Assembly: GCA_964616815.1 (NCBI GenBank)
Contig: CAZTTY010000009.1
Location: 23,735 to 55,734, forward strand
Direction of reading: 5' to 3'
Length of the DNA stretch: 32,000 nt
Source of the DNA: an uncultured Gemmatimonadaceae bacterium
GTDB lineage: Bacteria > Gemmatimonadota > Gemmatimonadetes > Gemmatimonadales > Gemmatimonadaceae
Shown here: positions 6,540-26,953 of the stretch, one piece after another
How the letters are laid out: each line of letters starts with the position of its first letter
How positions within the stretch are numbered: the first letter of the stretch is position 1
The notes under the pieces: model-generated
Databases searched by the model: none
Told to the model about the DNA's origin: nothing
What the model saw: the letters and a program-made list of their open reading frames with translations, nothing else
Made by a program: the position numbers and the translations under genes

Positions 6540-9131
6540 ATGACTACTTCTTTCGACATTCGCGCGGGTGTGCGGAGACGGATCCGGATGGTGGCCATGG
6601 CGGCGCTCCTGGCGCTCGCCTGCACGCTTCCCGGCGCTCCCCTCGGATCCCAGAGCGCGCGCGGCAGGCCGCTCACGCTCGGCGATCTCCTCGCCATGCA
6701 GACGATCTACGAGGTGGTACCGTCGCCGGACGGCGAGTGGTTCGCGGTGACGATCGTCCGCGGACGCACGGGGAACGAGATTTACGGTCAACCCGATCTG
6801 TTCGGTGCATCGCGCGCCGACATCTGGATAGTGCCCAGGCGTGGTGGCGAAGCTCGCAACATCACGCACGGAGCGCGTGATGGGGCGGGATACTGGAACC
6901 CGGTCTGGTCCCCGGATTCACGGCGCATGGCCGTGCTCTCGACGGCCGGAGGCGACAACATCCGCCTATACGTGCTGGACCGCACGGGCGGAACCGTTCG
7001 GCGACTGGCCGAGGATGGAATAGACGTCGAGATGAACGCGGGAGGCGTCTCGTTCCTTTCGCGCGTCGCCGCCGCCTGGACGAGCGACACGACACTACTC
7101 TGCTCCCTCCTGCCGCCGGGAGAGCTCCCGCGATTCTTCACCCGGGGCGTCGCCTTTGCACCGATGGCGTTGCGCGAATGGAACCGGATGCGGCGCGGCG
7201 CGGAACCCACTGCAAGTGTGCTCGAGTCGGGCGTCACCGTCGGCCGCCCATCGCGCCGCCTGGTGTCGATCGATGTCGAGTCGGGGAAGACCGAGCTGCT
7301 GGCCGAGGGGGCGTTCGCCAGCGCGACCCTGTCGCCGGACCGCGGGAGCGTCCTGCTCACCGAGGACACCGCCGCGTTCCTCCCAGCCGTGGACGAGCCG
7401 ATCGCGTATCCGCCCAACAACAACGTGTACCAGCATGTGATGCTCATGCATCGCAGGGTCGGTCTGCTCTCGCTGGGATCGCGCGATGCCGGGGTCCGCT
7501 GGATAGTGGGGTCCGCGGATCCGCAGGTGAATCACGCGGCCTTCGGCCCGGTGTGGTCTGCCGATGGAAGCGCGGTTGCGTGGCTGGCCGGGAATCTGGA
7601 GGCGCAGTCGGGCGGCGCGAGCTTCGCGATGCTGCTCGCCATCGGCTCGGGGTCGAAAGCGGTCCGGCTCGGGGGCCGAGGTTTTCGAGCGACGAGACTC
7701 GCGTGGGCGGGATCGGAGCTGCTGGTCCGGGGAAGGATGGACGCCGCCCCGACCGCGAGCCCCGGCGGAGAGCGGGAGGAGTGGTGGATCGTCGATGCCG
7801 GAGCGCCCGAAGCTCCGCCGCGTCCCATCACCACACGTCTCGCCGCGGTTCCCGCTCTACTCTGGGGCACGGGCGCTCCCCACGGCGTGGCGGGGGTCGC
7901 GGACGGAAGACTCTGGGAGATCGACACCCGGAGCGGCAATGCGACCGACATCACCCCGGCTTCCGTATCCGCGATCGAGGGAGTTTCGTGGCCCTCCGCT
8001 CTGGAGCTGGCCCGCGGGCGTGTCGCCGAAGTCGTCGTGTCGGCACGCGGGAGCGGGGAGGGCGAGTCGCATCGGGTCCGCATAACTGGTGGGTCCGCGG
8101 TCGCGCAGAAGCTGATCGCGCCCGCCCCCGAGGCGAAGCTCGCCGCGTTCGCGCCCGCGACCCGCACCGCGGTATTCGAGCGGCACGGTCCGGATGGGAC
8201 CTTTCTCTGGACCACCGACGCGCGGCGAGAGGGAGCGCACGATGGCGCGCCCCGCCTGGCCTTGAACGAGTACATGGCGGAGATCGCGGAGGGGAAGCAC
8301 TCGGTCGTGGAGTACTCCGGCGACGGCGGTCAGCGGCTGTGGGCGACGCTCATCCTTCCCCTGGACTACGAAGAGGGGAAGCGCTATCCGCTGGTGGTCG
8401 AGGTGTACGCCGGACATCGAGTCGCCTCGGAGCCGCGCTCGCCCGGGAGCGCCAAGGAGTATCCCAATCCTCAGCACAACCGACAGCTACTGGCCGCGCG
8501 GGGGTACGCGGTTCTCATCCCGAGTCTCCCCATGCCGTCCGGTACGGCGGCCGCGGACCCGTTCTTCGAGATGGCCCGGAACGCGCTGCCGGCGGTGGAC
8601 CGGGTCGTGGATCTCGGAATAGCCGATCCGGACCGTCTCGCACTCGTGGGCCACAGCTACGGTGGTTACGCGGCGCTCTCCATCCTAGCCCAGACGCGGC
8701 GGTTCAAGGCAGCGGTGATCAGCGCCGTACACTCCGACCTCCTCAGGTATCACCACAGCTTCCGGGTCACGCATCGGTACTACCCGTTCGCAGAGGATCT
8801 GCGGCAGTACATCATGGCCGGGCTGGAGGCTCCCACCGCGACGCTGCGACTCGGCGCCTCGCCGTGGCGGGACTATCTGCGATACATCCGCAACAGCCCC
8901 GTCTTCCATCTCGATCGCATCGAGACGCCGATTCTTCTGATGCACGGTGAGCTGGACGGGGTGCCCATCCAGCAGGCGGAGGAGGTGTTCATGGGCCTCC
9001 ACCGGATGGGCGGGCGTGTGCGCTTCGTCCGGTACTGGGGCGAGGCACACAACCTCGACTCGCCGGCGAATCTACGTGACAAGTGGAGCCGGACCTTCGA
9101 GTGGCTGGACGAATACCTCGGCGTCGATTGA
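6540..9131 (+). CDS. S9 (prolyl oligopeptidase family) serine peptidase with N-terminal beta-propeller
   Basis: The N-terminal half has TolB/DPP-IV-like repeats (WSPDSRRMAVLSTAGGDNIRLYVLD). The C-terminal alpha/beta hydrolase part has nucleophile motif GHSYGGYAA, acid in MHGELDGVP and His in WGEAHNL. A signal-like stretch reads MVAMAALLALACTLPGAPLGS. Confidence 0.9.
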   Translation: MTTSFDIRAGVRRRIRMVAMAALLALACTLPGAPLGSQSARGRPLTLGDLLAMQTIYEVVPSPDGEWFAVTIVRGRTGNEIYGQPDLFGASRADIWIVPRRGGEARNITHGARDGAGYWNPVWSPDSRRMAVLSTAGGDNIRLYVLDRTGGTVRRLAEDGIDVEMNAGGVSFLSRVAAAWTSDTTLLCSLLPPGELPRFFTRGVAFAPMALREWNRMRRGAEPTASVLESGVTVGRPSRRLVSIDVESGKTELLAEGAFASATLSPDRGSVLLTEDTAAFLPAVDEPIAYPPNNNVYQHVMLMHRRVGLLSLGSRDAGVRWIVGSADPQVNHAAFGPVWSADGSAVAWLAGNLEAQSGGASFAMLLAIGSGSKAVRLGGRGFRATRLAWAGSELLVRGRMDAAPTASPGGEREEWWIVDAGAPEAPPRPITTRLAAVPALLWGTGAPHGVAGVADGRLWEIDTRSGNATDITPASVSAIEGVSWPSALELARGRVAEVVVSARGSGEGESHRVRITGGSAVAQKLIAPAPEAKLAAFAPATRTAVFERHGPDGTFLWTTDARREGAHDGAPRLALNEYMAEIAEGKHSVVEYSGDGGQRLWATLILPLDYEEGKRYPLVVEVYAGHRVASEPRSPGSAKEYPNPQHNRQLLAARGYAVLIPSLPMPSGTAAADPFFEMARNALPAVDRVVDLGIADPDRLALVGHSYGGYAALSILAQTRRFKAAVISAVHSDLLRYHHSFRVTHRYYPFAEDLRQYIMAGLEAPTATLRLGASPWRDYLRYIRNSPVFHLDRIETPILLMHGELDGVPIQQAEEVFMGLHRMGGRVRFVRYWGEAHNLDSPANLRDKWSRTFEWLDEYLGVD

Positions 9132-9790: not shown

Positions 9791-12502
9791 ATGTCACGAC
9801 TTGCCGGATGGCTCTACACGCTTCGCTCGCTTCTTCGCCGCAACGAAGCGGATCGCGAGATGGCCGACGAGATCGAGTTCCATATCGAGCACCAGACTCG
9901 CAAGCACGAATCGCGCGGGCTGCCTCCCGGCGAGGCGCGCCGGCGCGCGCTACGCGAGTTCGGCGGAGCTACGCGCTGGCGCGAAGAGGCCCGGCGAGCG
10001 CGCGGCAGCGGCATCATCGACGTCGTCGAGCAGGACGCTCGCGCGACGCTCCGCGGTCTGCGGCGCGATCCCGCTTTCGTCGCGATGGCGACTGTCACGC
10101 TCGCGCTGGCCATCGGCGCCAACGCCGCGATGTTCGGAATCATCGACCGGTTGCTGCTGCGCGGGCCGGAGCACGTGGTCGCGCCGGAGCAGCTCGTTCG
10201 CGTTTACGTCACGCGTGTGACGCCGAGCTCCGAGGTCACTACGTCCGGCTGGCAGCCGTACGTCCTCTACCAGAACGCGCGCGACAATACGTCGGCGTTC
10301 TCGTCGGTCGCTATCTACGCGTCCGACAGGCTCCGGATCGGCTCGGGCACGGAGGCGCGCTTCGTACCCGTGACGTATGCGACGCCGGATCTGTTCCAGC
10401 TCGCGGGAGCTCGTCCGGCGCTCGGGCGCTTCTATTCGGCTTTCGAGGACCATCCACCCACGGGAGCGCGCGTAGTGGTGCTCGGCTATGGCTTCTGGCA
10501 ACGCGAGCTCGCTGGCGACTCCTCGGTAGTCGGCAAGCTCGTCACGCTAGGGGACGGGCGCTTCCGCGTGGTCGGCGTCGCGCCTCGCGGGTTCACGGGA
10601 GTCGAACGCGCGCCGGTCGATGCCTGGATCCCCATGAGCGACCGCCCGCGCAACCCCGAGGCGGCCGCCGATTGGACGACGAGCTGGCGATCCGATCGCG
10701 CAAGCATCGTGGGCCGCTTGGCGGTGACCAGGTCCGTGGCCCAGGAGCAGCTCACCGCCATGGTGCGCCGCGCGTACGTCGGTAAGGACCAGTCGATGCG
10801 AACCGCGAAGGTGACGGTTCTACCGGTGTCGTACGATATGCACGGTGCCGAGCCCGCGGAGCTCGGCGTCGCGCGGCTGCTGGCCGGAGTGACGCTGATC
10901 ATGCTGCTCGTAGCGGCCGCGAACGCCACCAATCTCGTACTCGCCCGAGCGATCCGCCGCCGCCGCGAGCTCGGCGTTCGCGTGGCGCTCGGTGCGGGAC
11001 GGTGGCGCGTCGTTCGCCTGATGGTCTTCGAGTCGGTTACGATCGCGCTGCTGGGCGGCCTTCTGGGACTCGTGATCGCGCAGTGGGGCGGTGGGATCAT
11101 CCGTCGAACGCTGCTCCCCGAGGTCGCCTGGGATGCGATGCCGGTAGATGGTCGCGTGCTGGCGTGGACGGCGATCGTCACGCTCCTCACCGGCGTGGTC
11201 GTGGGACTCATACCGGCGCTGCGTGTGAGCGGCGGGGACGCCGTCGCTGCGCTGCGAGGAGGTAGAACGGGTGGCGGAGGCGGCGCGGATTCGCACGGTG
11301 CGGCGCGCACTACGCTGCAGGTCGCGCAGCTCGCGCTCAGTCTCGTGCTGCTCTTCGCCGCTGCTCTCTTCGTCAGGAGCCTGTTCAACATTCGCCATCT
11401 CGACCTCGGCTACGATCGCGACCGGGTACTGGCGGTGGATGCATCCTTCCCCCGGCTCGACTCGGGGGCGATGGACGCAGCCGCGCGCGGCCCACTCGCC
11501 GCGCAGGCTCGCTACGAGGAGCTGCGCGAACGATTCGCGCGTCTCCCGGGGGTCGCCAGCGCCAGCATTGCATTCGGCAGTCCGCTGGCGTCGCTCAACG
11601 TCTTGCGAATCCGGGTACCCGGCCTCGACTCGCTACCGCCAGCGAAGGGCGGTATCACCATGATCACGAATGCTGCTCCGACGTATTTCGAAACCGTCGG
11701 CACGCGGATACTGCGCGGTCGCGGCTTCACCGCGAACGATGGGTTCGGAACCGAGCCCGTTGTCGTCGTGAACGAGACGCTGGCCAGGACGATCTGGCCG
11801 CGAGTCGATCCCATCGGCCGCTGTATAGTGCTCGCCGGAGTGAATGGCGGCGCGTGTGCGCGAGTAGTGGGCATCGCGCAGGACGTCCACCACATGACGC
11901 TTCGGGAAGACGCCTTCAATCAGAGCTACATCCCCTGGGGACAGGACAGGCGTGCGGTGGAAGGCTCGGTGCTGCTGGTTCGCGCGAGCGGCGATGATGC
12001 CGCAGCGCTGGCCACGGCGCTGAACGGCGTCCTGCGGCGGTCTGCTCCGGAGATGCACTCGGTCGAAATCAGGACATTCGAGCAGTTGCTCGATCCGCAG
12101 ATACGCCCGTGGCGCGTCGGAGCGACGTTGTTCGGACTGTTCGGCGGGATCGTGATGGTGGTGGCGGCGATCGGCCTGTTCAGCGTTGTCTCGTACCTGG
12201 TCACTCAGCGCACGCACGAATTCGGCGTCCGCACCGCCCTGGGTGCCCGGCGTAGGCACGTGCTCAGTCTCGTCATGGGAAGCGGGCTGCGTACCGCCAT
12301 CGCCGGGACGGTAGTCGGAAGCGTCGTGTCGATCGCCATCGCGCCGTTCCTTCAACCGTTGCTCTTCGATATCCACGCGCGCGATCCGTGGTTGCTTGCC
12401 GTGGTCGCAGCCATCCTGTTGGTCATTGCCGCCGCGGCGAGTCTCTGGCCATCGTGGCGCGCTACACGTGTAGACCCACTCCTGGCCCTGAAAGCAGAGT
12501 AA
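9791..12502 (+). CDS. Duplicated FtsX-domain ABC-type permease (MacB-like, 'ADOP' duplicated orphan permease type)
   Basis: 903 aa. The N-terminal prefix LRSLLRRNEADREMADEIEFHIEHQT...RRRALREFGG is typical of PadR-linked permeases. There are two MacB-like periplasmic domain plus FtsX 4-TM modules; the second ends HEFGVRTALGARRRHVLSLVM...WPSWRATRVDPLLALKAE. Confidence 0.9.
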   Translation: MSRLAGWLYTLRSLLRRNEADREMADEIEFHIEHQTRKHESRGLPPGEARRRALREFGGATRWREEARRARGSGIIDVVEQDARATLRGLRRDPAFVAMATVTLALAIGANAAMFGIIDRLLLRGPEHVVAPEQLVRVYVTRVTPSSEVTTSGWQPYVLYQNARDNTSAFSSVAIYASDRLRIGSGTEARFVPVTYATPDLFQLAGARPALGRFYSAFEDHPPTGARVVVLGYGFWQRELAGDSSVVGKLVTLGDGRFRVVGVAPRGFTGVERAPVDAWIPMSDRPRNPEAAADWTTSWRSDRASIVGRLAVTRSVAQEQLTAMVRRAYVGKDQSMRTAKVTVLPVSYDMHGAEPAELGVARLLAGVTLIMLLVAAANATNLVLARAIRRRRELGVRVALGAGRWRVVRLMVFESVTIALLGGLLGLVIAQWGGGIIRRTLLPEVAWDAMPVDGRVLAWTAIVTLLTGVVVGLIPALRVSGGDAVAALRGGRTGGGGGADSHGAARTTLQVAQLALSLVLLFAAALFVRSLFNIRHLDLGYDRDRVLAVDASFPRLDSGAMDAAARGPLAAQARYEELRERFARLPGVASASIAFGSPLASLNVLRIRVPGLDSLPPAKGGITMITNAAPTYFETVGTRILRGRGFTANDGFGTEPVVVVNETLARTIWPRVDPIGRCIVLAGVNGGACARVVGIAQDVHHMTLREDAFNQSYIPWGQDRRAVEGSVLLVRASGDDAAALATALNGVLRRSAPEMHSVEIRTFEQLLDPQIRPWRVGATLFGLFGGIVMVVAAIGLFSVVSYLVTQRTHEFGVRTALGARRRHVLSLVMGSGLRTAIAGTVVGSVVSIAIAPFLQPLLFDIHARDPWLLAVVAAILLVIAAAASLWPSWRATRVDPLLALKAE

Positions 12503-18490: not shown

Positions 18491-19417
18491 CTACTCTACA
18501 CTCGCGATCCGCCGCACGTACTCCACCACATACGCGGCGATGTCGGTCGCCGAGTGCTGATCCAGTCCCATCTCCATCGCTCGCTGCTCCATGGGCTCGA
18601 CCCAGTGCGGGTGTACAATGATTTCTGGAGGCCAGCGCTGTTGCTGGCGAACGTCGAAAGTCTCCTCGCAGACCGACCGTAGTGCGGCCGATGGCGGTGC
18701 CAGAGTGCTGAGCATCACTATATCCAGGAGATCGCGGAACCGGTCATTGATCCGTTCCTCAGCCGGCGTCTCGGTGACGGCGTGAAGCTTCTGTGCGACC
18801 TGCTTGATGATCGGGATGCATGGCAGAAGCGCGGGTCCTTCGATCCCGAACGGACGAAGCGAGAAGGCTCGGACCATCTCGGGTGCCAGCGGCGTTCCCT
18901 CGTAGGCAGATACCTCGAGCTTCACATTGGCGAACGGCCGCTCGACGATGCGACCGAATCGCTCTTCCTGGTAAGAGACGTGGATCCTGAACCTGCGCAT
19001 ATGGCGAGCGTCGGGGGTCTCCAGCTCCATGCGGAGTGCGAAGTTGTGGCGTGGCACTTCGAGCGCGGTACGGACGGCCGTCTCGATATCGTCCAGTGCG
19101 CCATGGTACGTTGCGTCGAGGTCCCTGGTCGCTCGTGGACGGATTGTAGTCTGCCCGGCCGTCGTACGTTGAGCATCGGCGCGCTCCAGTTGCCGCATGC
19201 GCATCTCGATCGCAGCACCACCTTTCAACTCGAACAGCGATTTACCGTCCGGCGCATAGCTCGCCAGCGCGTCTGCCACGATGGTGAATCCGACCCAGCG
19301 TTGCACCCAGTCGGTCTCGATCCCGAGCTCTTTCCCACACCGTGTGATCGCTTGCGCGAGAGCGCTCGCCGTCTGGGGCGGCAGGTTCTTCAGCAGGGGG
19401 CCGAGTTCGTCGAGCAT
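18491..19417 (-). CDS. abiEii: AbiEii/AbiGii-family nucleotidyltransferase toxin (type IV TA)
   Basis: 308 aa. Contains LFELKGGAAIEMR...RATRDLDATY, which matches the KGG(T)A...R-x-T-x-D-L-D nucleotidyltransferase core of DUF1814/AbiEii proteins. It lies directly downstream of an AbiEi-like gene. Confidence 0.8.
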   Translation of the reverse strand: MLDELGPLLKNLPPQTASALAQAITRCGKELGIETDWVQRWVGFTIVADALASYAPDGKSLFELKGGAAIEMRMRQLERADAQRTTAGQTTIRPRATRDLDATYHGALDDIETAVRTALEVPRHNFALRMELETPDARHMRRFRIHVSYQEERFGRIVERPFANVKLEVSAYEGTPLAPEMVRAFSLRPFGIEGPALLPCIPIIKQVAQKLHAVTETPAEERINDRFRDLLDIVMLSTLAPPSAALRSVCEETFDVRQQQRWPPEIIVHPHWVEPMEQRAMEMGLDQHSATDIAAYVVEYVRRIASVE

Positions 19418-19453
19418 GTCCGAACGGTCGGTTGCGAGGGATCGAAGATTCTT

Positions 19454-20032
19454 CTAAAGCTTCCCTGCCAAGTTGAGCTCTCCCGTCAGCGCATCGGCAT
19501 CGGTGGGCGAAAGCCACCCACCTCGGCGTGCGTCGTCGATCGCCTGGTGGATGAGCGCCGGCCCCATGTTAGCCATCGCACAGTCACGGATCGCCCTGTC
19601 GGCGGTCGTGACCGGGAGGCCCTCGACTGACCCTACGTCCGCAGGTGCGAGGTCGGCAAAGTGCAATACGACCCCTGGCGGCGGGTTGCGCCGGCGAGGG
19701 CGGTGCTTCCTCGGCACCGTAACGTGGATCCTGGTCGGGTTCACGTCTGACAGCTCCATCAGGTCGAGTGCGGTCTCGTGGGACAGCACGCCGGTCGTCC
19801 CCTGTGGCCACATCACGGCGGTGGCATAGGAAGTCCACCGGGTGGTTGGCGCGCCCGGGTCGTGGTACAATCCATAAGCGATCCGAACGAGACGCCCGCG
19901 CCGAGCCATCATGACCAGCGCGGTCGTCTTCACGCCAGCGGCCCGAGCTTGCTCGGCGGTAAATACTCCGTGTTGCTCGAGCGCCAGAGCATGCACGGTG
20001 GCATAGGCGTCGTAAGTGCCGTGATCTGGCAT
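19454..20032 (-). CDS. abiEi: AbiEi-family antitoxin / transcriptional autoregulator
   Basis: Track ORF 19454..20158 trimmed to ATG 20032, because the upstream 42 codons are just the translated palindromes. N-terminal wHTH-like HGVFTAEQARAAGVKTTALVMMARRGRLVRIAYGLYH. C-terminal domain VLSHETALDLMELSDVNPTRIHVTVP...LPVTTADRAIRDC. Confidence 0.8.
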   Translation of the reverse strand: MPDHGTYDAYATVHALALEQHGVFTAEQARAAGVKTTALVMMARRGRLVRIAYGLYHDPGAPTTRWTSYATAVMWPQGTTGVLSHETALDLMELSDVNPTRIHVTVPRKHRPRRRNPPPGVVLHFADLAPADVGSVEGLPVTTADRAIRDCAMANMGPALIHQAIDDARRGGWLSPTDADALTGELNLAGKL

Positions 20033-20044
20033 TGCGGGGTCCGT

Positions 20045-20077
20045 GGACAAGATATAATGACTTGTTATATCTTGTCC
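20045..20077. promoter_or_regulatory. 33-bp perfect palindrome (proximal to abiEi): likely AbiEi operator
   Basis: GGACAAGATATAA-TGACTTG-TTATATCTTGTCC, with 13-bp perfect arms. It lies 12 nt upstream of the abiEi ATG and contains TATAAT on the + strand (20053-20058). Confidence 0.6.
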
Positions 20078-20097
20078 GTTACCATCGCTCCTGTCAA
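20069..20097 (-). promoter_or_regulatory. Candidate abiE promoter: perfect -35 TTGACA (20097-20092), 17 nt, weak -10 CAAGAT (20074-20069)
   Basis: Read on the minus strand between the two palindromes. The putative -10 lies inside the palindrome at 20045-20077, which fits autorepression. The -10 assignment is weak. Confidence 0.4.
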
Positions 20098-20107
20098 GAG
20101 TTGATGG

Positions 20108-20140
20108 GGACAAGATATAACGACTTGTTATATCTTGTCC
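20108..20140. promoter_or_regulatory. Second copy of the 33-bp palindrome (proximal to jetA): likely AbiEi operator
   Basis: GGACAAGATATAA-CGACTTG-TTATATCTTGTCC. It matches the first copy at 32 of 33 nt. The centres are 63 bp apart. Each copy is followed by ACC(C)ATCGCTC. It ends 81 nt upstream of the jetA ATG. Confidence 0.6.
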
Positions 20141-20221
20141 GGATGACCCATCGCTCACGCATCGTCAACCCAACGCTTGCAGTGCCCAGATGAACTCCCC
20201 CGCCGCCCACCTGACCGATCC

Positions 20222-21706
20222 ATGGACTACCACACGCTCGATCACCTCCGACGCGACCACCCCGCCTGGCGGCTCCTCGCCGCGCAGCACGCGCCGCTGA
20301 TCGTGAGTGTCCTCCACCGCCACTTCGTCGATCCCAACGTCCGCACCATGCCGCGCAATGAGCTCGTCGAGCACGTGGAGGATGACCTCTTCCACCTCCG
20401 CGAAGAGCTCGGCGACGATGTGTTCCCCCGCTCCGCCGCGAACTATCTGGACGAGTGGGCCTCAGACGATAAAGGATGGCTCCGCAAGTACTACCCGGCC
20501 GGCACCGACGAACCGCACTACGACATCACCCCCGCCACCGAGAAGGTCATCGGCTGGCTCGCCGGGCTCCAGGAACGCCACTTCATCGGCACGGAGTCGC
20601 GATTGCTCACGGTCTTCGAGCTCCTCCGGCAGATGCTGGAAGGCACCGAGCTCGACCCCGATGCGCGCATCGCCGAGCTCGAAAGGCGCCGCGCGGAGAT
20701 CGACGCCGAGATCGGGAAGATCCGCGGCGGCCAGCTCGACATCATGGACGCCACGCAGGTAAAGGAACGCTTTCTCCAGATGTCGGCGACCGCGCGCGGG
20801 CTGTTGGCGGACTTCCGCGACGTGGAGCAGAACTTCCGCGAGCTCGACCGGAGCGTCCGCGAGCGGATCGCCGTGTGGGATGAAAGTCGCGGTGCGCTCC
20901 TGGATTCGATCTTCGACGAGCGCGATGCGATCGAAAACTCGGATCAGGGTAAGAGCTTCAACGCCTTCTGGGACTTTCTCATGTCGCCGGAGCGGCAGGA
21001 GGAGCTCACTTCGCTGTTGCGCTCCGTGATGGATCTCGATGCGGTGCGCTCCCTCTCGCCACCGCCCGATCCGCGCCTGTCACGGATCCATTACGACTGG
21101 CTGGAAGCGGGCGAGGTCGCGCAGCGCACTGTCGCCCGGCTCTCGCGGCAGTTGCGCCGCTACCTCGACGACCAGGCGTGGCTGGAGAACCGCCGCATCA
21201 TGCAACTGATCCGCTCCGTCGAGCAGCACGCGCTCGCCATTCGACACGATTTCCCGGCCGGCCCCGCCATGGAGATCGACCAGGCCGCGCCGGACATCGA
21301 CCTCCCAATGGAACGCCCGCTCTTCTCCCCATCGTTCAAGCCGGTGCTCGGTGGCGACGTGGTGCTCGCGGGTGACGAAGACATCCCCGCCGATGCGCTT
21401 TTCGATCAGATTTACGTGGACCGCGAGAAGCTCCGCTCCAACGTGCGACGCATGCTCCAGAACCGCCGCCAGATCTCGCTGATGGATGTGATAGACGAGT
21501 GCCCGCTCGAGCATGGGCTCGCGGAGCTCGTGGGCTACCTGAGCATCGCCGCCGACGATGGCAACGCGTCGATCGACGAAGAACGGAGAGAGTCCGTCGC
21601 ATGGACGGACGACGCGGGCGTCAGCCGGCGAGCAGAGCTCCCGCGCGTGCTGTTCGTGCGATCCGCGGAAGGTCTGGTGGATCCCGCCGACGCAATGACT
21701 TCGTGA
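20222..21706 (+). CDS. jetA: Wadjet JetA (DUF3375, MksF/kleisin-like)
   Basis: Track ORF trimmed to the first ATG at 20222. Contains MDYHTLDHLRRDHPAWRLLAAQHAPLIVSVLHRHF...YLDEWASDDKGWLRKYYPAGTDEPHYDITPATEKVIGWL...GTESRLLTVFELLRQM, then a coiled-coil segment and QGKSFNAFWDFLMSPERQEEL. This is characteristic of DUF3375. Confidence 0.9.
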   Translation: MDYHTLDHLRRDHPAWRLLAAQHAPLIVSVLHRHFVDPNVRTMPRNELVEHVEDDLFHLREELGDDVFPRSAANYLDEWASDDKGWLRKYYPAGTDEPHYDITPATEKVIGWLAGLQERHFIGTESRLLTVFELLRQMLEGTELDPDARIAELERRRAEIDAEIGKIRGGQLDIMDATQVKERFLQMSATARGLLADFRDVEQNFRELDRSVRERIAVWDESRGALLDSIFDERDAIENSDQGKSFNAFWDFLMSPERQEELTSLLRSVMDLDAVRSLSPPPDPRLSRIHYDWLEAGEVAQRTVARLSRQLRRYLDDQAWLENRRIMQLIRSVEQHALAIRHDFPAGPAMEIDQAAPDIDLPMERPLFSPSFKPVLGGDVVLAGDEDIPADALFDQIYVDREKLRSNVRRMLQNRRQISLMDVIDECPLEHGLAELVGYLSIAADDGNASIDEERRESVAWTDDAGVSRRAELPRVLFVRSAEGLVDPADAMTS

Positions 21707-22296
21707 CGGCCCCCGACCAGCTCCCCCGCGTCCTCATCGCCCTCATGAAGGGAGTGGTCTACCGGGAGAACGATGCCGCTCTCTGGCAGTCGCTCGAGTC
21801 GCTGCAGGCGCGTGCCCACGACTACGTGTCGCTGCTCGGCCTGGAACTCATCCTTGATGAGAGCGAGGGTTACGCGTACCTGCGGCAGCGTATGGTCGAT
21901 GTCGGTTCCGAAGATGGTGAAGACGTCGATCTTCCCCGGCTCGTCGCGCGTCGCCAGCTCGGCTTTCCGGTCAGTCTACTGCTGGCGCTTCTGCGCAAAC
22001 GCCTCGCCGAGCTGGATGCGAAGGGCGGTGAGACGCGGCTCATCGTGAGCCGCGACGACATGGTCGACATGCTGCGCCTCTTCGCCCCGGATGCATCGAA
22101 CGAAGCGCGCCTCACCGACCGCATCGATGCACACATCGCGAAGGTGGTGGAGCTCGGTTTCCTGCGCCTCCTGGCTGGCCACGCCGATCTGTACGAGGTG
22201 CGCCGTATACTGAAGGCGTTCGTGGATGCGCAATGGCTGCACGATTTCGACGAGCGCCTGTCGGCGTACCGCGAGCACGTCGATGCGCGCGCCTGA
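21703..22296 (+). CDS. jetB: Wadjet JetB (DUF4194, MksE-like)
   Basis: The GTG at 21703 overlaps the jetA stop (GTGA). Contains [57 protein letters not shown]...[25 protein letters not shown]...[16 protein letters not shown]. Confidence 0.85.
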
Positions 22297-25200
22297 CGAT
22301 CGGGCGGCGGCGGGTTCCGCGGCAGCCTCGAACACGCCGCCAGCGACGGACATCGTGCACGGACGGCGCAATCCTCGTCCCGGCTTCCGGCTCGACCGAC
22401 TCGAGGTCTACAACTGGGGCACGCTCGATGGATCGGTGTGGGGGCTCGACTGCAGCGGTGAGAACGCGCTCCTCACGGGCGACATCGGTTCCGGGAAGTC
22501 CACGCTGGTGGACGCGATCAGCACACTGCTGATCGCGCCCGGGAAGATCACCTACAACCGCGCGGCCGGCGCGGAGGCGCGCGAGCGCACGCTCCGCACC
22601 TACGTTCTGGGCCACTACAAGTCCGAACGCGGCGGCGGTTCCGCGGCGAAGCCGATCGCGCTGCGGGATCACAACAAGTATTCGGTTATACTGGGACGTT
22701 TCATCAACGAGCAGCTCGCTCAGCAGGTTACGCTCGTCGAGCTGTTCTGGTGGAAGGATACACAGGGCCAACCCGCGCGCTTCTACGTGGTCGCCGACGT
22801 TCCGCTCTCGATCGCTGAGCACTTTTCGAACTTCGGCAAGCACATCGACCGCCTGCGCAAACGGCTCCGCGAGATGGATGGAGTCGAGCTCCACGACAGC
22901 TTCCCGCCGTACGGCGCGGCGTATCGCCGCCGAATGGGGATCGAGAGCGAACAGGCGATGGACCTGTTCTACCAGACCGTGTCGATGAAGGCGGTGGGAA
23001 ATCTCACCGAGTTCGTGCGCGCGCACATGCTCGAGCCTTTCGACGTGCAGGAGCGGATCCAGGCCCTCATCGGCCACTTCGATGATCTCACGCGCGCGCA
23101 CGAGGCGGTGCAGAAGGCGAAGGCGCAGATCGAGCTCCTCGCCCCGCTGGTGGAGAATTGCGAGCGGCACTCGGCTCTGGTGGCGAGTGTGGAGTCGCTG
23201 CGAGGGTCGCGGGACGCGCTGACGCCTTGGTTCGCGATGCTCGAGGGCGGGCTGCTCGATGAGCGGATCGCGAAGCTGCAGGCCGATGCCCTGCGCATGG
23301 AGGAGCGCCTTGCAACGCTCGCCACGAAGATCAACGATGCGAGCGCGAAGTGCGCGTCGCTCGAGGCAGCCGTCAAACTGGAAGGCGGCGGACGCATAGC
23401 CGAGATCCAGCGCGAGATCGCCATGCACGTGGCTGAGCGGGATGCTCGCACCAGCAAGGCGGAGAGCTACCGTGCCCTCGTGCGTGCCGCGGAGCTTCCC
23501 ACGACATTGGACGCGGAGACGTTCATCGCCAACAGGAATGCGATTGCGGAGGAGAGTGAAGCGACGGAGATGGCGCAGGCCTCGGTACAGAACGCTCTCA
23601 CCGAGGCGAGCGTGGAGATGCGCGATCTGGAGGAGCGACACAGGGCGCTCGCGAGCGAACTGGAGTCGCTCCGGCGGCGCCGCTCGAACATCCCCACTCA
23701 CATGCTGGGGATACGCGAGCGGCTGTGCGCCGCATTGGGCCTCGAAGAGAGTGTGGTCCCGTTTGCGGGCGAGCTGATTCAGGTGCGGGAAGACGCTCGC
23801 GACTGGGAGGGCGCGATCGAGCGTCTGCTCCATGGCTTTGGGCTCTCGCTTCTCGTGAGCGATGCCGATTACGCGGCCGTGGCGGAGTGGGTGGACCGCA
23901 ACGACCTGAAGGGCAGGCTGGTCTACTATCGGACGGCCGGCGGGGCTCAGCGCGGGAGATCTCGAGTCGATCCACGCTCGGTGGGCGCCCAACTCCAGCT
24001 CGAACCGTCATCGCCATTCTATCAATGGCTCGACGATACGATCAGTCGGCGCTTCGATCATCTCTGCTGTATGTCTTCCGAAGAGCTGAGGCGCGCTTCG
24101 CGCGGCATCACGCGTGCGGGGCAGATCAAGGAAGGACCCGAACGCCACGAGAAGGACGACCGCCACGCGATCGGCGACCGCACGCGCTGGGTGCTGGGGT
24201 GGTCCAACGAGAGAAAGATCGCCGCGCTCGAGAAGCAGGCGGCGGATGTCGCCCTGCGGGGCAACGCCGCGCTCGGCCGGCTCACCGGGCTGAAGGATGA
24301 GCAGCGCGCCGTGGGTGAGCGGAAGCGCACGCTCGACCAGCTCTCGATGTTCGTCAGCTTCCGCGAGGTAGACTGGAAGAGCGTGGCGGTGGAGATCGAT
24401 GAACTCGAGCGGGAGCTGCGCGAGCTCGAGGCGGCGTCCGATCGGCTCCACGCGCTTCGCGAGCAACTGCGCGCGGCGGAGGATGTGCTGAGCCGGCTGA
24501 AAGACGAGCGCGAGACTCGCATCGATAAGCGAGGTGCGTTGCGCGGCACGCTGGAAGCCGCTCGGGGAGAACGCGCCAGGTGCGCCGATACGCTCGCCAC
24601 CACCTCCGAAGAAGAGCGCGCCGAGCGATTTCCCAGACTGGAGGCGCTGCGGGCGGACGCCATCGGTACGGCGGCGATCACCCTGGAATCGTGCGATGCG
24701 CGCGAGCGCGAGATGCGCTCGTGGATCCAGAACCGGATCGATACAGACGAGCGCCGGCGCGGACATCTCGGCGAGCGAATCGTGAGTGAAATGCAGAAGT
24801 ACATCGCCGCCTACCCGCTCGAGACGCGCGAAGTGGATGCCACCGTCGACTCGGCGGGTGAATTCGCGGCGATGCTCGAACGGCTGCGCTCGGACGATCT
24901 GCCGCGGTTCGAGGTGAGGTTCAAGGAGCTTCTGAACCAGAACACCATCCGGGAGATCGCCAACTTCCAGTCGCAACTCGCGCGCGAGAGCAGGACCATC
25001 GCCGAACGGATCGAGCGCATCAACCAGTCGCTGAACGACATCGACTACAATCCCGGCCGTTTCATATTGCTCGAAACGGAAGTGAGCACCGACCGGGAGG
25101 TACGCGACTTCCAGCAGGAGCTGCGGTCATGCACGGAGGGAGCGCTGACCGGTTCGGAAGACGACGCGTACTCGGAAACGAAGTTCGAGCAGGTGAAGCG

Positions 25201-25756
25201 GATCATCGACCGCTTTCGCGGCCGCGAGGGGAGCGCGGAGGTCGACAAGCGCTGGACGCGCACCGTCACCGACGTGCGCAACTGGTACGTCTTTTCCGCC
25301 TCGGAGCGCTGGCGTGAGGATGGGAGCGAATACGAGCACTACACCGACTCCGGTGGGAAATCCGGCGGGCAGAAGGAGAAGCTCGCCTACACCGTGCTCG
25401 CGGCGAGTCTGGCGTACCAGTTCGGACTCGACGCCGTGGCGGGGAAGGCGCGCACGTTCAGATTCGTGGTGATCGACGAAGCGTTCGGCAGGGGGTCGGA
25501 CGAGTCGGCGCGCTACGGTCTGGAGCTCTTCCGGAAGCTGGAGCTGCAGCTTCTGGTGGTGACGCCGCTGCAGAAGATTCACATCATCGAGCCGTACGTC
25601 GCGGCGGTGGGTTTCGTGTACAACCCCGACGGGAACGCCTCGATGTTGCGGAATCTCACGATCGAGGAATACAGGAAGGAGCAGGCAGCCGCGAGCGCCG
25701 ATGGCCGAAGGAATGGTGGCCGGTCGGCCGGAGGCCGAGGGGATGGGGCGGAGTAG
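22283..25756 (+). CDS. jetC: Wadjet JetC (MksB/SMC-like ATPase)
   Basis: The ATG at 22283 overlaps jetB by 14 nt. Contains [16 protein letters not shown] and Walker [10 protein letters not shown], long coiled-coil arms, the signature-like [23 protein letters not shown], and Walker [18 protein letters not shown]. Confidence 0.9.
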
Positions 25757-26953
25757 ATGAACGACTGGGTCGGACCGGCAGAGCTGACGTCGCAGCTCGA
25801 GAGACATTGGGCCCGGGGCCGAATCCTGAGGGCCATGGTGGACGGAGCATCGATATTTCCACTGCGCCTGCGGCTTCGCGGGCCGACGCGCTCCGACCTG
25901 GCCGATCGGTTCGACGAAGTGCGAAAGTGGATCGGCGAGCTGGAGGGGAGCAGCAAGAGCGCGCGCGGCTACGGGTACGATCTGGAATGGACGGAGAGCC
26001 GGCACAGGCAGTTGGGACGCAATCGGTGGCCATCCGGCGCGATCGTGTCGACCGAGGACGATGCGCTGCGTCTCATCGGGAAGCGGCGCGATGCGGCGCG
26101 CTTCAGGGAGATCATCGCGGCCACGACGGCGAGCTTCCCGGAACTGCGTGAGTGGCTGTCGCGCTATCCGTTGATCGCGCTGGAGTGCGCCGATGACTGG
26201 AGCCGGATACTCGCCGTGCTCACCTGGTTCAGGGAGCATCCGCGTAGCGGCCTCTATCTGCGGCAGCTCGACATCCCCGGCGTGGACACGAAGTTCATCG
26301 AGGACCGTCGCGGTCTCATCGCTACGCTGCTCGATCGGATACTTCCCCCGGAGTCCATCGATGCGACGGCCGTGGGGGCTCGCGGATTCGAGGTGCGCTA
26401 CGGCCTGCGATGCAAACCGGCGTTGGTGCGCTTTCGAATACTGGACCGCCGACTGCGTCTGCACGGCCTGTCCGACATCACCGTACCTGTGGAGGAGCTC
26501 GCGGAGCTCCGGTTGGGTGCGCGGCGAGCGTTCGTCACGGAAAACGAGATCAATGGACTGGCGTTTCCGGAGCTACCCGGCAGCATCGTCATCTTCGGCA
26601 TGGGCTACAGGGCGGAACTGCTCGCGGGTGTCGGGTGGCTCAACGATATCGACATCCATTACTGGGGCGACATCGACACGCACGGGTTCGGGATACTGGA
26701 CCGGCTGCGAGGTGGGATCCCACACGCTCGATCGTTCCTGATGGATCGAGCTACGCTACTCGCGCATCGCGAGCTCTGGGTGACCGAGGAGAGCGGCGAG
26801 ACGAGGGAGTTGAACCGTCTCACCAACGCGGAGCGAGTGTTGTACGACGAGCTACGGGGCGATCGATACGGTCGGAAAGTCCGGTTGGAGCAGGAACGGA
26901 TCTGGTTCGCCTGGGTGAAGCGGGCATTGCAGGAACTCGGCGTAGTGGAATGA
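25757..26953 (+). CDS. jetD: Wadjet JetD (DUF3322 plus DUF2220/Toprim-like nuclease subunit)
   Basis: The ATG immediately follows the jetC TAG. Contains ...ILRAMVDGASIFPLRLRLRGPTRSDLADRFDEVRKWI... and the C-terminal Toprim-like FVTENEINGLAFPE...IVIFGMGY...IHYWGDIDTHGFGILDRLR. Confidence 0.9.
   Translation: MNDWVGPAELTSQLERHWARGRILRAMVDGASIFPLRLRLRGPTRSDLADRFDEVRKWIGELEGSSKSARGYGYDLEWTESRHRQLGRNRWPSGAIVSTEDDALRLIGKRRDAARFREIIAATTASFPELREWLSRYPLIALECADDWSRILAVLTWFREHPRSGLYLRQLDIPGVDTKFIEDRRGLIATLLDRILPPESIDATAVGARGFEVRYGLRCKPALVRFRILDRRLRLHGLSDITVPVEELAELRLGARRAFVTENEINGLAFPELPGSIVIFGMGYRAELLAGVGWLNDIDIHYWGDIDTHGFGILDRLRGGIPHARSFLMDRATLLAHRELWVTEESGETRELNRLTNAERVLYDELRGDRYGRKVRLEQERIWFAWVKRALQELGVVE

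Follow-up and report, generated by a model that had tools for sequence, protein, structure and literature searches.

In an uncultured Gemmatimonadaceae bacterium, an abiE toxin-antitoxin operon and a Wadjet operon diverge from one short intergenic spacer that carries two almost identical palindromes. This arrangement raises the question of which operon the palindromes serve: the abiE operon alone, as operators of its antitoxin gene, or the Wadjet operon as well, so that, as a first-pass annotation of the same DNA had proposed, the AbiEi-DNA complex would also gate Wadjet transcription. Here, the window (the whole stretch of DNA analysed, 32,000 nucleotides in length with a GC content of about 66%) was compared with related abiE and jet loci.

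Results

Two defence operons start on either side of a 189-bp spacer

The genes flanking the spacer are as follows.

18491-19417, minus strand: abiEii, DUF1814 nucleotidyltransferase (predicted toxin), 308 aa; Pfam PF08843 E=4e-15, PADLOC AbiEii E=1e-51
19454-20032, minus strand: abiEi, winged helix-turn-helix (wHTH) protein (predicted antitoxin and repressor), 192 aa; PF13338, PADLOC AbiEi E=2e-62
20222-21706, plus strand: jetA (DUF3375), 494 aa; Pfam E=7e-163, PADLOC JetA1
21703-22296, plus strand: jetB (DUF4194/MksE), 197 aa; Pfam, PADLOC JetB1
22283-25756, plus strand: jetC, SMC-like ATPase, 1157-aa gene call; Pfam, PADLOC JetC1
25757-26953, plus strand: jetD (DUF3322 and JetD_C), 398 aa; Pfam, PADLOC JetD1

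The identities that the first-pass annotation had given to the flanking genes hold in both Pfam and PADLOC (AbiEi_4, AbiEii, DUF3375/JetA, DUF4194/JetB, JetC, and JetD). For the abiE side, Pfam placed the PF13338/COG5340 wHTH domain at the N terminus of AbiEi (43.7 bits versus a cut-off of 25) and PF08843 in AbiEii (56.8 bits versus 22.5), and a Pfam scan of AbiEi returned no WYL domain. The AbiEi family profile matches the solved S. agalactiae AbiEi structure 6y8q (E=5e-8). abiEi (20032-19454) precedes abiEii (19417-18491) on one strand with a gap of 36 nt, forming a bicistronic unit, and the gene order, the wHTH AbiEi, the DUF1814 AbiEii, and the inverted repeats in the promoter are those of an AbiE type IV toxin-antitoxin system. 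A ferritin/Dps-like gene (PF00210, 17893-18411) converges on abiEii across a gap of 80 nt.

For the Wadjet side, jetA, jetB, jetC, and jetD are co-directional and match the JetA1, JetB1, JetC1, and JetD1 profiles near full length, as in a type I Wadjet. jetA and jetB overlap by 4 nt and jetC abuts jetD; the jetC reading frame opens at an earlier ATG, 22226 (1176 aa), than the public call at 22283, which overlaps jetB by 14 nt. These overlaps and the abutment are consistent with translational coupling along the operon. No integrase or mobility gene was found by Pfam among the ORFs beyond jetD, and a scan of the window for island boundaries returned no tRNA.

Both start codons are backed by homologues. 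The first methionine of AbiEi is near-invariant among 37 homologues, which supports the ATG at 20032, and the match of JetA to the PADLOC JetA1 profile begins at residue 1, which supports the ATG at 20222. Because both agree with the homologue alignments, the divergent starts given at first pass stand, and the spacer between them measures 189 bp.

The spacer carries twin 33-bp dyads around a predicted abiE promoter

Within the spacer, the following elements were distinguished.

20045-20077, no strand: proximal dyad O1, GGACAAGATATAA-TGACTTG-TTATATCTTGTCC; position and symmetry conserved in eight lineages
20069-20074, minus strand: predicted -10 element of the abiE promoter (PabiE), CAAGAT, within O1, 17 nt after the -35 element
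20092-20097, minus strand: -35 element of PabiE, TTGACA; TTGAC(A/G) in seven of eight lineages
20108-20140, no strand: distal dyad O2, GGACAAGATATAAC-GACTT-GTTATATCTTGTCC; position and symmetry conserved in eight lineages
20141-20221, plus strand: jetA-proximal spacer, without a sigma-70-like candidate in 20166-20221

A sequence check reproduced the two copies of GGACAAGATATAA-N7-TTATATCTTGTCC that had been reported at 20045-20077 and 20108-20140. The copies match at 32 of 33 nt, the sole difference being T20058 versus C20121, and their starts lie 63 bp apart, with 30 bp between O1 and O2. O2 is a dyad with 14-nt arms and a 5-nt centre, lies upstream of the -35 element of PabiE, and ends 81 nt before the jetA ATG.

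The exact half-site GGACAAGATATAA occurs four times, and these are the sole matches in the 32-kb window even when three mismatches are allowed. We estimate that an AT-rich 13-mer would turn up as an exact match about 0.001 times per 64-kb search at 66% GC, and the four clustered copies are therefore not attributable to chance. The four half-sites are located between -13 and -108 relative to the abiEi ATG, with the -35 element between the two pairs. When metagenomes were scanned for exact copies of the operator GGACAARRTATAAYNNNNNGTTATAYYTTGTCC, the one contig returned was from the same strain.

The perfect TTGACA facing abiEi that the first-pass annotation had placed between the copies is present on the minus strand at 20097-20092. 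The best sigma-70-like pair towards abiEi is TTGACA-17-CAAGAT, with a score of 9/12, the Gemmatimonadota promoter consensus itself being uncharacterised. Read off the alignment described below, the -10-equivalent hexamers at the 17-nt spacing in the other lineages are CAAAAT, CAATAC, and CAATAT. The predicted start of abiE transcription lies near the centre of O1, which would place O1 at about -16 to +17 and O2 at about -47 to -79.

The repetition exceeds the palindrome, since each copy is followed by the ACC(C)ATCGCTC noted at first pass (as (G)..ACC(C)ATCGCTC, in 20078-20091 and 20141-20168). This tail of the duplicated unit recurs in 20141-20158, and the repeated unit comes, with gaps, to about 49 nt in all. 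A second -35-like motif, TTGACG, occupies 20168-20163 of the minus strand and precedes O2 by 22 nt. The pattern suggests that, in the window lineage, a unit made up of the -35 element, the spacer, and the dyad was recently duplicated in tandem or copied by gene conversion, which would explain the identity of O1 and O2 at 32 of 33 nt compared with the more divergent dyads of L007, L008, and L101. No third, degenerate dyad is visible one period (63 bp) further towards jetA.

The two-dyad module is conserved and covaries across abiE lineages

AbiEi has numerous relatives. Contexts of abiEi were taken from 80 loci of species-representative genomes, from the contigs encoding the closest proteins, and from a metagenome pattern scan. 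Eight lineages were aligned, with AbiEi identities of 100 (the window), 86, 79, 74, 73, 71, 70, and 67%. The contigs with 100% AbiEi identity, together with L093 and L100, were counted as one strain, and the spacer is identical across all eight same-strain contigs.

The eight lineages share a common layout: a 33-bp dyad, 9-11 nt, TTGAC(A/G), 13-14 nt, a second 33-bp dyad, approximately 10-16 nt, and the ATG. In every lineage, 13-14 nt thus separate the -35 element from the proximal dyad and 9-11 nt separate it from the distal dyad; the element is degenerate only in L101. The dyad starts are 62-63 bp apart where counted (window, L087, L007, L008, and L091). Beyond the distal dyad, the sequences do not align among lineages.

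In addition, the symmetry of the dyads has been kept while their sequences changed. Ten arm pairs have changed on both sides, and 91% of the cells are complementary over the eight lineages. None of 500 shuffles matched 10 pairs and 91%, and slid controls, in which the partner was moved by 1-3 columns, gave 0-3 such pairs and 34-50% complementarity. The inner positions of the half-sites vary between lineages with the symmetry kept. Half-sites are also more alike within a locus (12.4 of 14 positions) than between loci (10.7 of 14), a likeness that 0 of 10,000 permutations reached. Such concerted evolution of the half-sites is what co-evolution with one cognate binding protein would predict. Each 33-bp dyad comprises two such 14-nt half-sites about a 5-nt centre. 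Their consensus is GGACAAgAtwyAAC, in which G1, G2, C4, and A13 are invariant and positions 3, 5, 6, 8, and 14 nearly so.

The dyad extends to a wider clade, in which AbiEi identity to the window protein is 41-53% and most members are Solirubrobacterales MAGs: an AT-rich 33-bp GGAC...GTCC dyad is present at the abiEi start, once or more, in 50 of the 80 loci, and L067 has two such dyads at a distance of 62 bp. As judged from these loci, the 33-bp dyad is a hallmark of this AbiEi clade that travels with abiE.

The Solirubrobacterales relatives (L023, L033, L065, L068, L071, and many others, at about 7950-7990) have a single 33-bp dyad, for example GGACAAAGTAACGC-AAAAT-GCGTTAGACTGTCC, with its centre 6-8 nt before the approximate start codon. 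This position suggests leaderless or very-short-leader abiE transcripts with the operator over the start. For L101 (79% AbiEi), two transposase-related genes (DDE_Tnp_ISAZ013 and Tnp_DNA_bind, 136-1094) lie directly upstream and the -35 element reads TCGCCA, so that this promoter may be decaying or rewired.

Proposed role of the dyads in abiE autorepression

These comparisons make it very probable that the twin palindromes serve the abiEi-abiEii operon as its autoregulatory operators and form part of the abiE cassette itself. The first-pass claim that they are AbiEi operators in the abiE promoter is thereby strongly supported, through the eight-lineage comparison and the wider-clade dyads, and it agrees with what is known of the family (PMC7319586). 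We infer that the winged-helix AbiEi binds the dyads and shuts off its own promoter, the exact -10 element and start site being predictions. O1 covers the predicted -10 element and transcription start, so that AbiEi bound there would occlude RNA polymerase. O2 would reinforce the repression by cooperative or looping contacts through a short loop; because 63 bp is about six helical turns, the two dyads would present the same face of the DNA.

Two observations tell against the operator assignment. The geometry is unlike that of both characterised operators, which consist of 23-bp repeats 3 or 13 bp apart, and the -35 element of L101 is degenerate (TCGCCA). Moreover, AbiEi binding is not to be assumed for every family member: Rv1044, for one, fails to bind its own promoter (PMC7319586).

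The neighbour of the module differs in every lineage

The gene found upstream of abiE differs in every lineage, as listed here.

Window: jetA, divergent
L101: two transposase genes upstream of abiEi
L102/L103: type II secretion (T2SS) gene, co-directional
L007, L008, L104: unrelated co-directional genes
L091/L092 (67% AbiEi): long non-coding stretch with an apparent tRNA 3'-end fragment
L087 (86% AbiEi): contig ends before the upstream neighbour

The readable upstream neighbours in six further lineages are thus all non-Wadjet, and none of the 80 species-representative loci has a jet gene within 8 kb of abiEi. The first-pass annotation had suggested a survey for divergent abiE-jetABCD pairs in related genomes; no such recurrence was seen. 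The two-dyad module is independent of the gene that adjoins it.

Seen from jetA, the closest relatives whose upstream DNA is readable (76% and 73% JetA identity) have unrelated upstream genes. The same arrangement is present beside a 99% JetA match, which is effectively the same strain. The contigs with 79% JetA begin 269 bp upstream of jetA, without reaching the upstream gene, and those with 88-89% JetA (L094 and L095) break 50-72 bp upstream of it. The contigs with 86% AbiEi (L087-L090) all break 70-170 bp upstream of abiEi.

Breaks thus recur in the independent assemblies L087-L090, L094, and L095 within 50-170 bp of the start of abiEi or jetA, at positions in or next to the dyads and a C-rich tract. 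This control region apparently defeats short-read assemblers, which hides the neighbourhood in the relevant sister lineage. L087 ends in the C-rich tract, and its last 9 nt are identical to the first 9 nt of L095 (88% JetA). L094 starts with ...CGACCATCCTGTCC, a sequence that may represent the right arm of a dyad that has diverged. An adjacency of L087 with L094/L095, bridged by eye, was not counted, as it consists of a 9-nt overlap of low-complexity C-rich sequence between different samples.

The surroundings of abiE also show a mixture of shared and variable genes. For the 67% lineage, a MacB/FtsX permease gene (903 aa) and a PadR gene lie about 0.5 kb from abiE (L091 10152-13263, L092 4821-7932). 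The window also has a 903-aa MacB/FtsX gene (9791-12502), some 6 kb away from abiE, and in L001 a PadR gene follows beyond it. The chromosomal neighbourhood of abiE therefore seems to be similar in the two lineages. Variable cargo lies between: ferritin, TANGO2, a beta-propeller protein, and Wadjet in the window, and an IS and the tRNA fragment in the 67% lineage.

Fragments resembling tRNA 3' ends adjoin both systems. One, GGCGGGATTCGAACCCGCGACC, is beside abiE on the opposite strand (L091 7575-7625), and another, TTCGAGTCCGGTCGCCCGCTC, is at the start (1-25) of both contigs with 79% JetA, L096 and L097. ARAGORN found no intact tRNA at L091 7575-7625 or at L096/L097 1-25. The presence of such fragments beside abiE and beside Wadjet is a hint that tRNA genes are the integration sites through which both systems arrive.

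Does the abiE operator also control Wadjet?

The alternative that fares best against these data accepts the abiE operators and adds a second target: the AbiEi-operator complex would also control jetABCD, by design or by regulatory capture after juxtaposition. We consider this unlikely. Its more specific form is a shade more doubtful still, namely that in this lineage jetABCD has taken over the abiE operator pair as its control region, with Wadjet repressed by AbiEi and released when antitoxin occupancy falls; the ground for it is that the only usable jetA promoter would overlap the distal dyad. If coupling is real, regulatory capture after juxtaposition is more likely than a designed unit.

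The composition of the spacer makes cross-control of jetA by the operator pair physically plausible. Because abiEi and jetA are divergent, the jetA promoter must be in the spacer, half of which is operator. The first-pass statement that jetA has no other obvious promoter was confirmed by two scans: neither the strict nor the relaxed scan found a sigma-70-like promoter in 20166-20221, and the sole candidates overlap or abut O2. These are GGGACA-18-TATCTT (20107-20136, inside O2, 8/12) and TTGTCC-19-CATCGT (20135-20165, 7/12), whose -35 hexamer is the last 6 nt of O2. Against their being promoters, the hexamers score no more than 7-8/12 and are generated by the symmetric, AT-rich sequence of the dyad.

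The strict promoter tool returned only TGGACA-18-TATCTT on the plus strand, inside O1, and this hit was put down to the symmetry of O1.

Only about the last 35-40 nt before the jetA ATG are common to the window and the closest Wadjet loci, so that an ancestral jetA promoter may have been displaced as the two systems were brought together. In a comparison of Wadjet relatives for a common -10-like element, hexamers of the form nAtATT/nAAATT occur 22-45 nt before the jetA start in L095, L096, L098, and L099, and the window has TGCAGT at the aligned position. The spacer is, moreover, unchanged in all eight same-strain contigs, and the 9-nt match between L087 and L095 would mean that the adjacency may persist in the sister lineage, although a low-complexity overlap of this length between different samples speaks against giving it weight.

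Against coupling, the two-dyad module occurs at equal spacing in L007, L008, L102, and L104, where there is no divergent gene at all, and also beside transposases (L101) or a tRNA fragment (L091). Because the module and its spacing are present where nothing is transcribed divergently, O2 exists for abiE and not for jetA. The absence of jet genes within 8 kb at all 80 genome loci and the unrelated genes upstream of the 76% and 73% JetA relatives also argue against it, and constitutive expression of Wadjet is expected in the literature (PMC11662680). The proposal that the AbiEi complex gates Wadjet therefore found no comparative support. These results point to a chance juxtaposition in a variable region rather than a conserved regulatory unit. 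In the autoregulatory reading favoured here, the Wadjet operon would be a strain- or lineage-specific neighbour, for which the operator pair did not evolve.

Other explanations of the palindromes

That the palindromes belong to a mobile element as its ends or targets (MITE-like repeats, recombination sites), or are bound by some unrelated host regulator, is very improbable. The region does vary between genomes, IS genes and a tRNA fragment adjoin abiE in L101 and L091, and the unit is locally duplicated. However, the window holds no other copies and the metagenome pattern scan returned this strain only; abiE has both dyads on the same side and is not flanked by them. The distance from dyad to -35 element is fixed to within 1-2 nt (that to the ATG to about 10-16 nt) over 33% protein divergence, and the half-sites covary with the AbiEi lineage.

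Least probable of all is a function at the RNA level, with the palindromes forming hairpins (of a leader attenuator, a terminator, or a small RNA). Each dyad, once transcribed, could fold into a stem of 13-14 bp, and there are weak Rfam matches to hairpin-shaped models, but the models concerned are those of eukaryotic miRNA precursors, and the matches reach 31 bits where the cut-off is 95 bits. Within the scanned part (19400-20700) no terminator-like site turned up, and no T-run follows either dyad. O2 would fall outside the abiE transcript because it is upstream of the conserved -35 element, and the O1 hairpin could not form in the mRNA because the predicted start is at the centre of O1.

Discussion

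Among described systems, the operator layout proposed here is closest to that of M. tuberculosis Rv2827c, with other internal spacings. Rv2827c binds two inverted-repeat pairs, located at -1 to -131 and straddling the SigA site, and represses its own expression (Beck et al. 2020, PMC7319586); its operator is built of 23-bp repeats, with gaps of 13 bp inside each pair and of 4 bp from one pair to the other (PMC7319586). As in Rv2827c-Rv2826c, an AbiE-family pair related to MenAT, the wHTH antitoxin gene comes first and the DUF1814 toxin gene second in a bicistronic unit, and four repeat elements form two inverted pairs that straddle or overlap the promoter in the roughly 130 bp before the start codon. 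Negative autoregulation, which is established for Rv2827c, would by analogy apply here. The loci differ in that the window has 14-nt arms, a 5-nt centre, 30 bp between the dyads, and the -35 element between them, and the half-site sequences are unrelated.

The S. agalactiae AbiEi belongs to the same protein family and likewise has inverted repeats within its promoter. According to Hampton et al. (2018), as reported in PMC7319586, it binds a single pair of 23-bp inverted repeats, with 3 bp between them, in PabiE, and does so cooperatively, with bending of the DNA and autorepression. Unlike that operator, the one in the window consists of two separate dyads 63 bp apart. For the S. agalactiae locus, no sharing of the control region with another defence system is described.

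The first-pass annotation knew of no precedent for an antitoxin controlling an SMC-type anti-plasmid system. This stands as far as AbiEi is concerned, since our literature search found no paper linking AbiEi to Wadjet control, but it needs qualifying in that wHTH-WYL repressors of the CapW/BrxR type have already been reported adjoining Wadjet (PMC11662680, PMC9122601). The likeness lies in a winged-helix repressor gene beside a defence operon, CapW and BrxR binding inverted repeats in the shared control region. Those repressors, however, carry a WYL sensor domain (wHTH-WYL-WCX) that AbiEi lacks, and they are recurrently linked to the systems that they control, whereas AbiEi is the antitoxin of its own toxin-antitoxin pair and its link with Wadjet is not recurrent: joint presence, as in a conserved regulator-Wadjet module, was seen at 0 of the 80 loci.

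If control of jetABCD by AbiEi were true, the gating of Wadjet by an antitoxin would be relevant to the regulation of constitutive defence systems, and a toxin-antitoxin module would act as a stress sensor for an SMC-type anti-plasmid system. For AbiEi itself, the proposed operators would add a defined layout to the few characterised AbiEi autoregulatory sites, with a GGACAAgAtwyAAC half-site, a 33-bp dyad, and a pair of dyads about 63 bp apart bracketing the -35 element. This layout holds for an AbiEi clade in Gemmatimonadota and Actinomycetota MAGs, and work on the DNA specificity of AbiEi could take the natural covariation of half-site and protein lineage as a guide.
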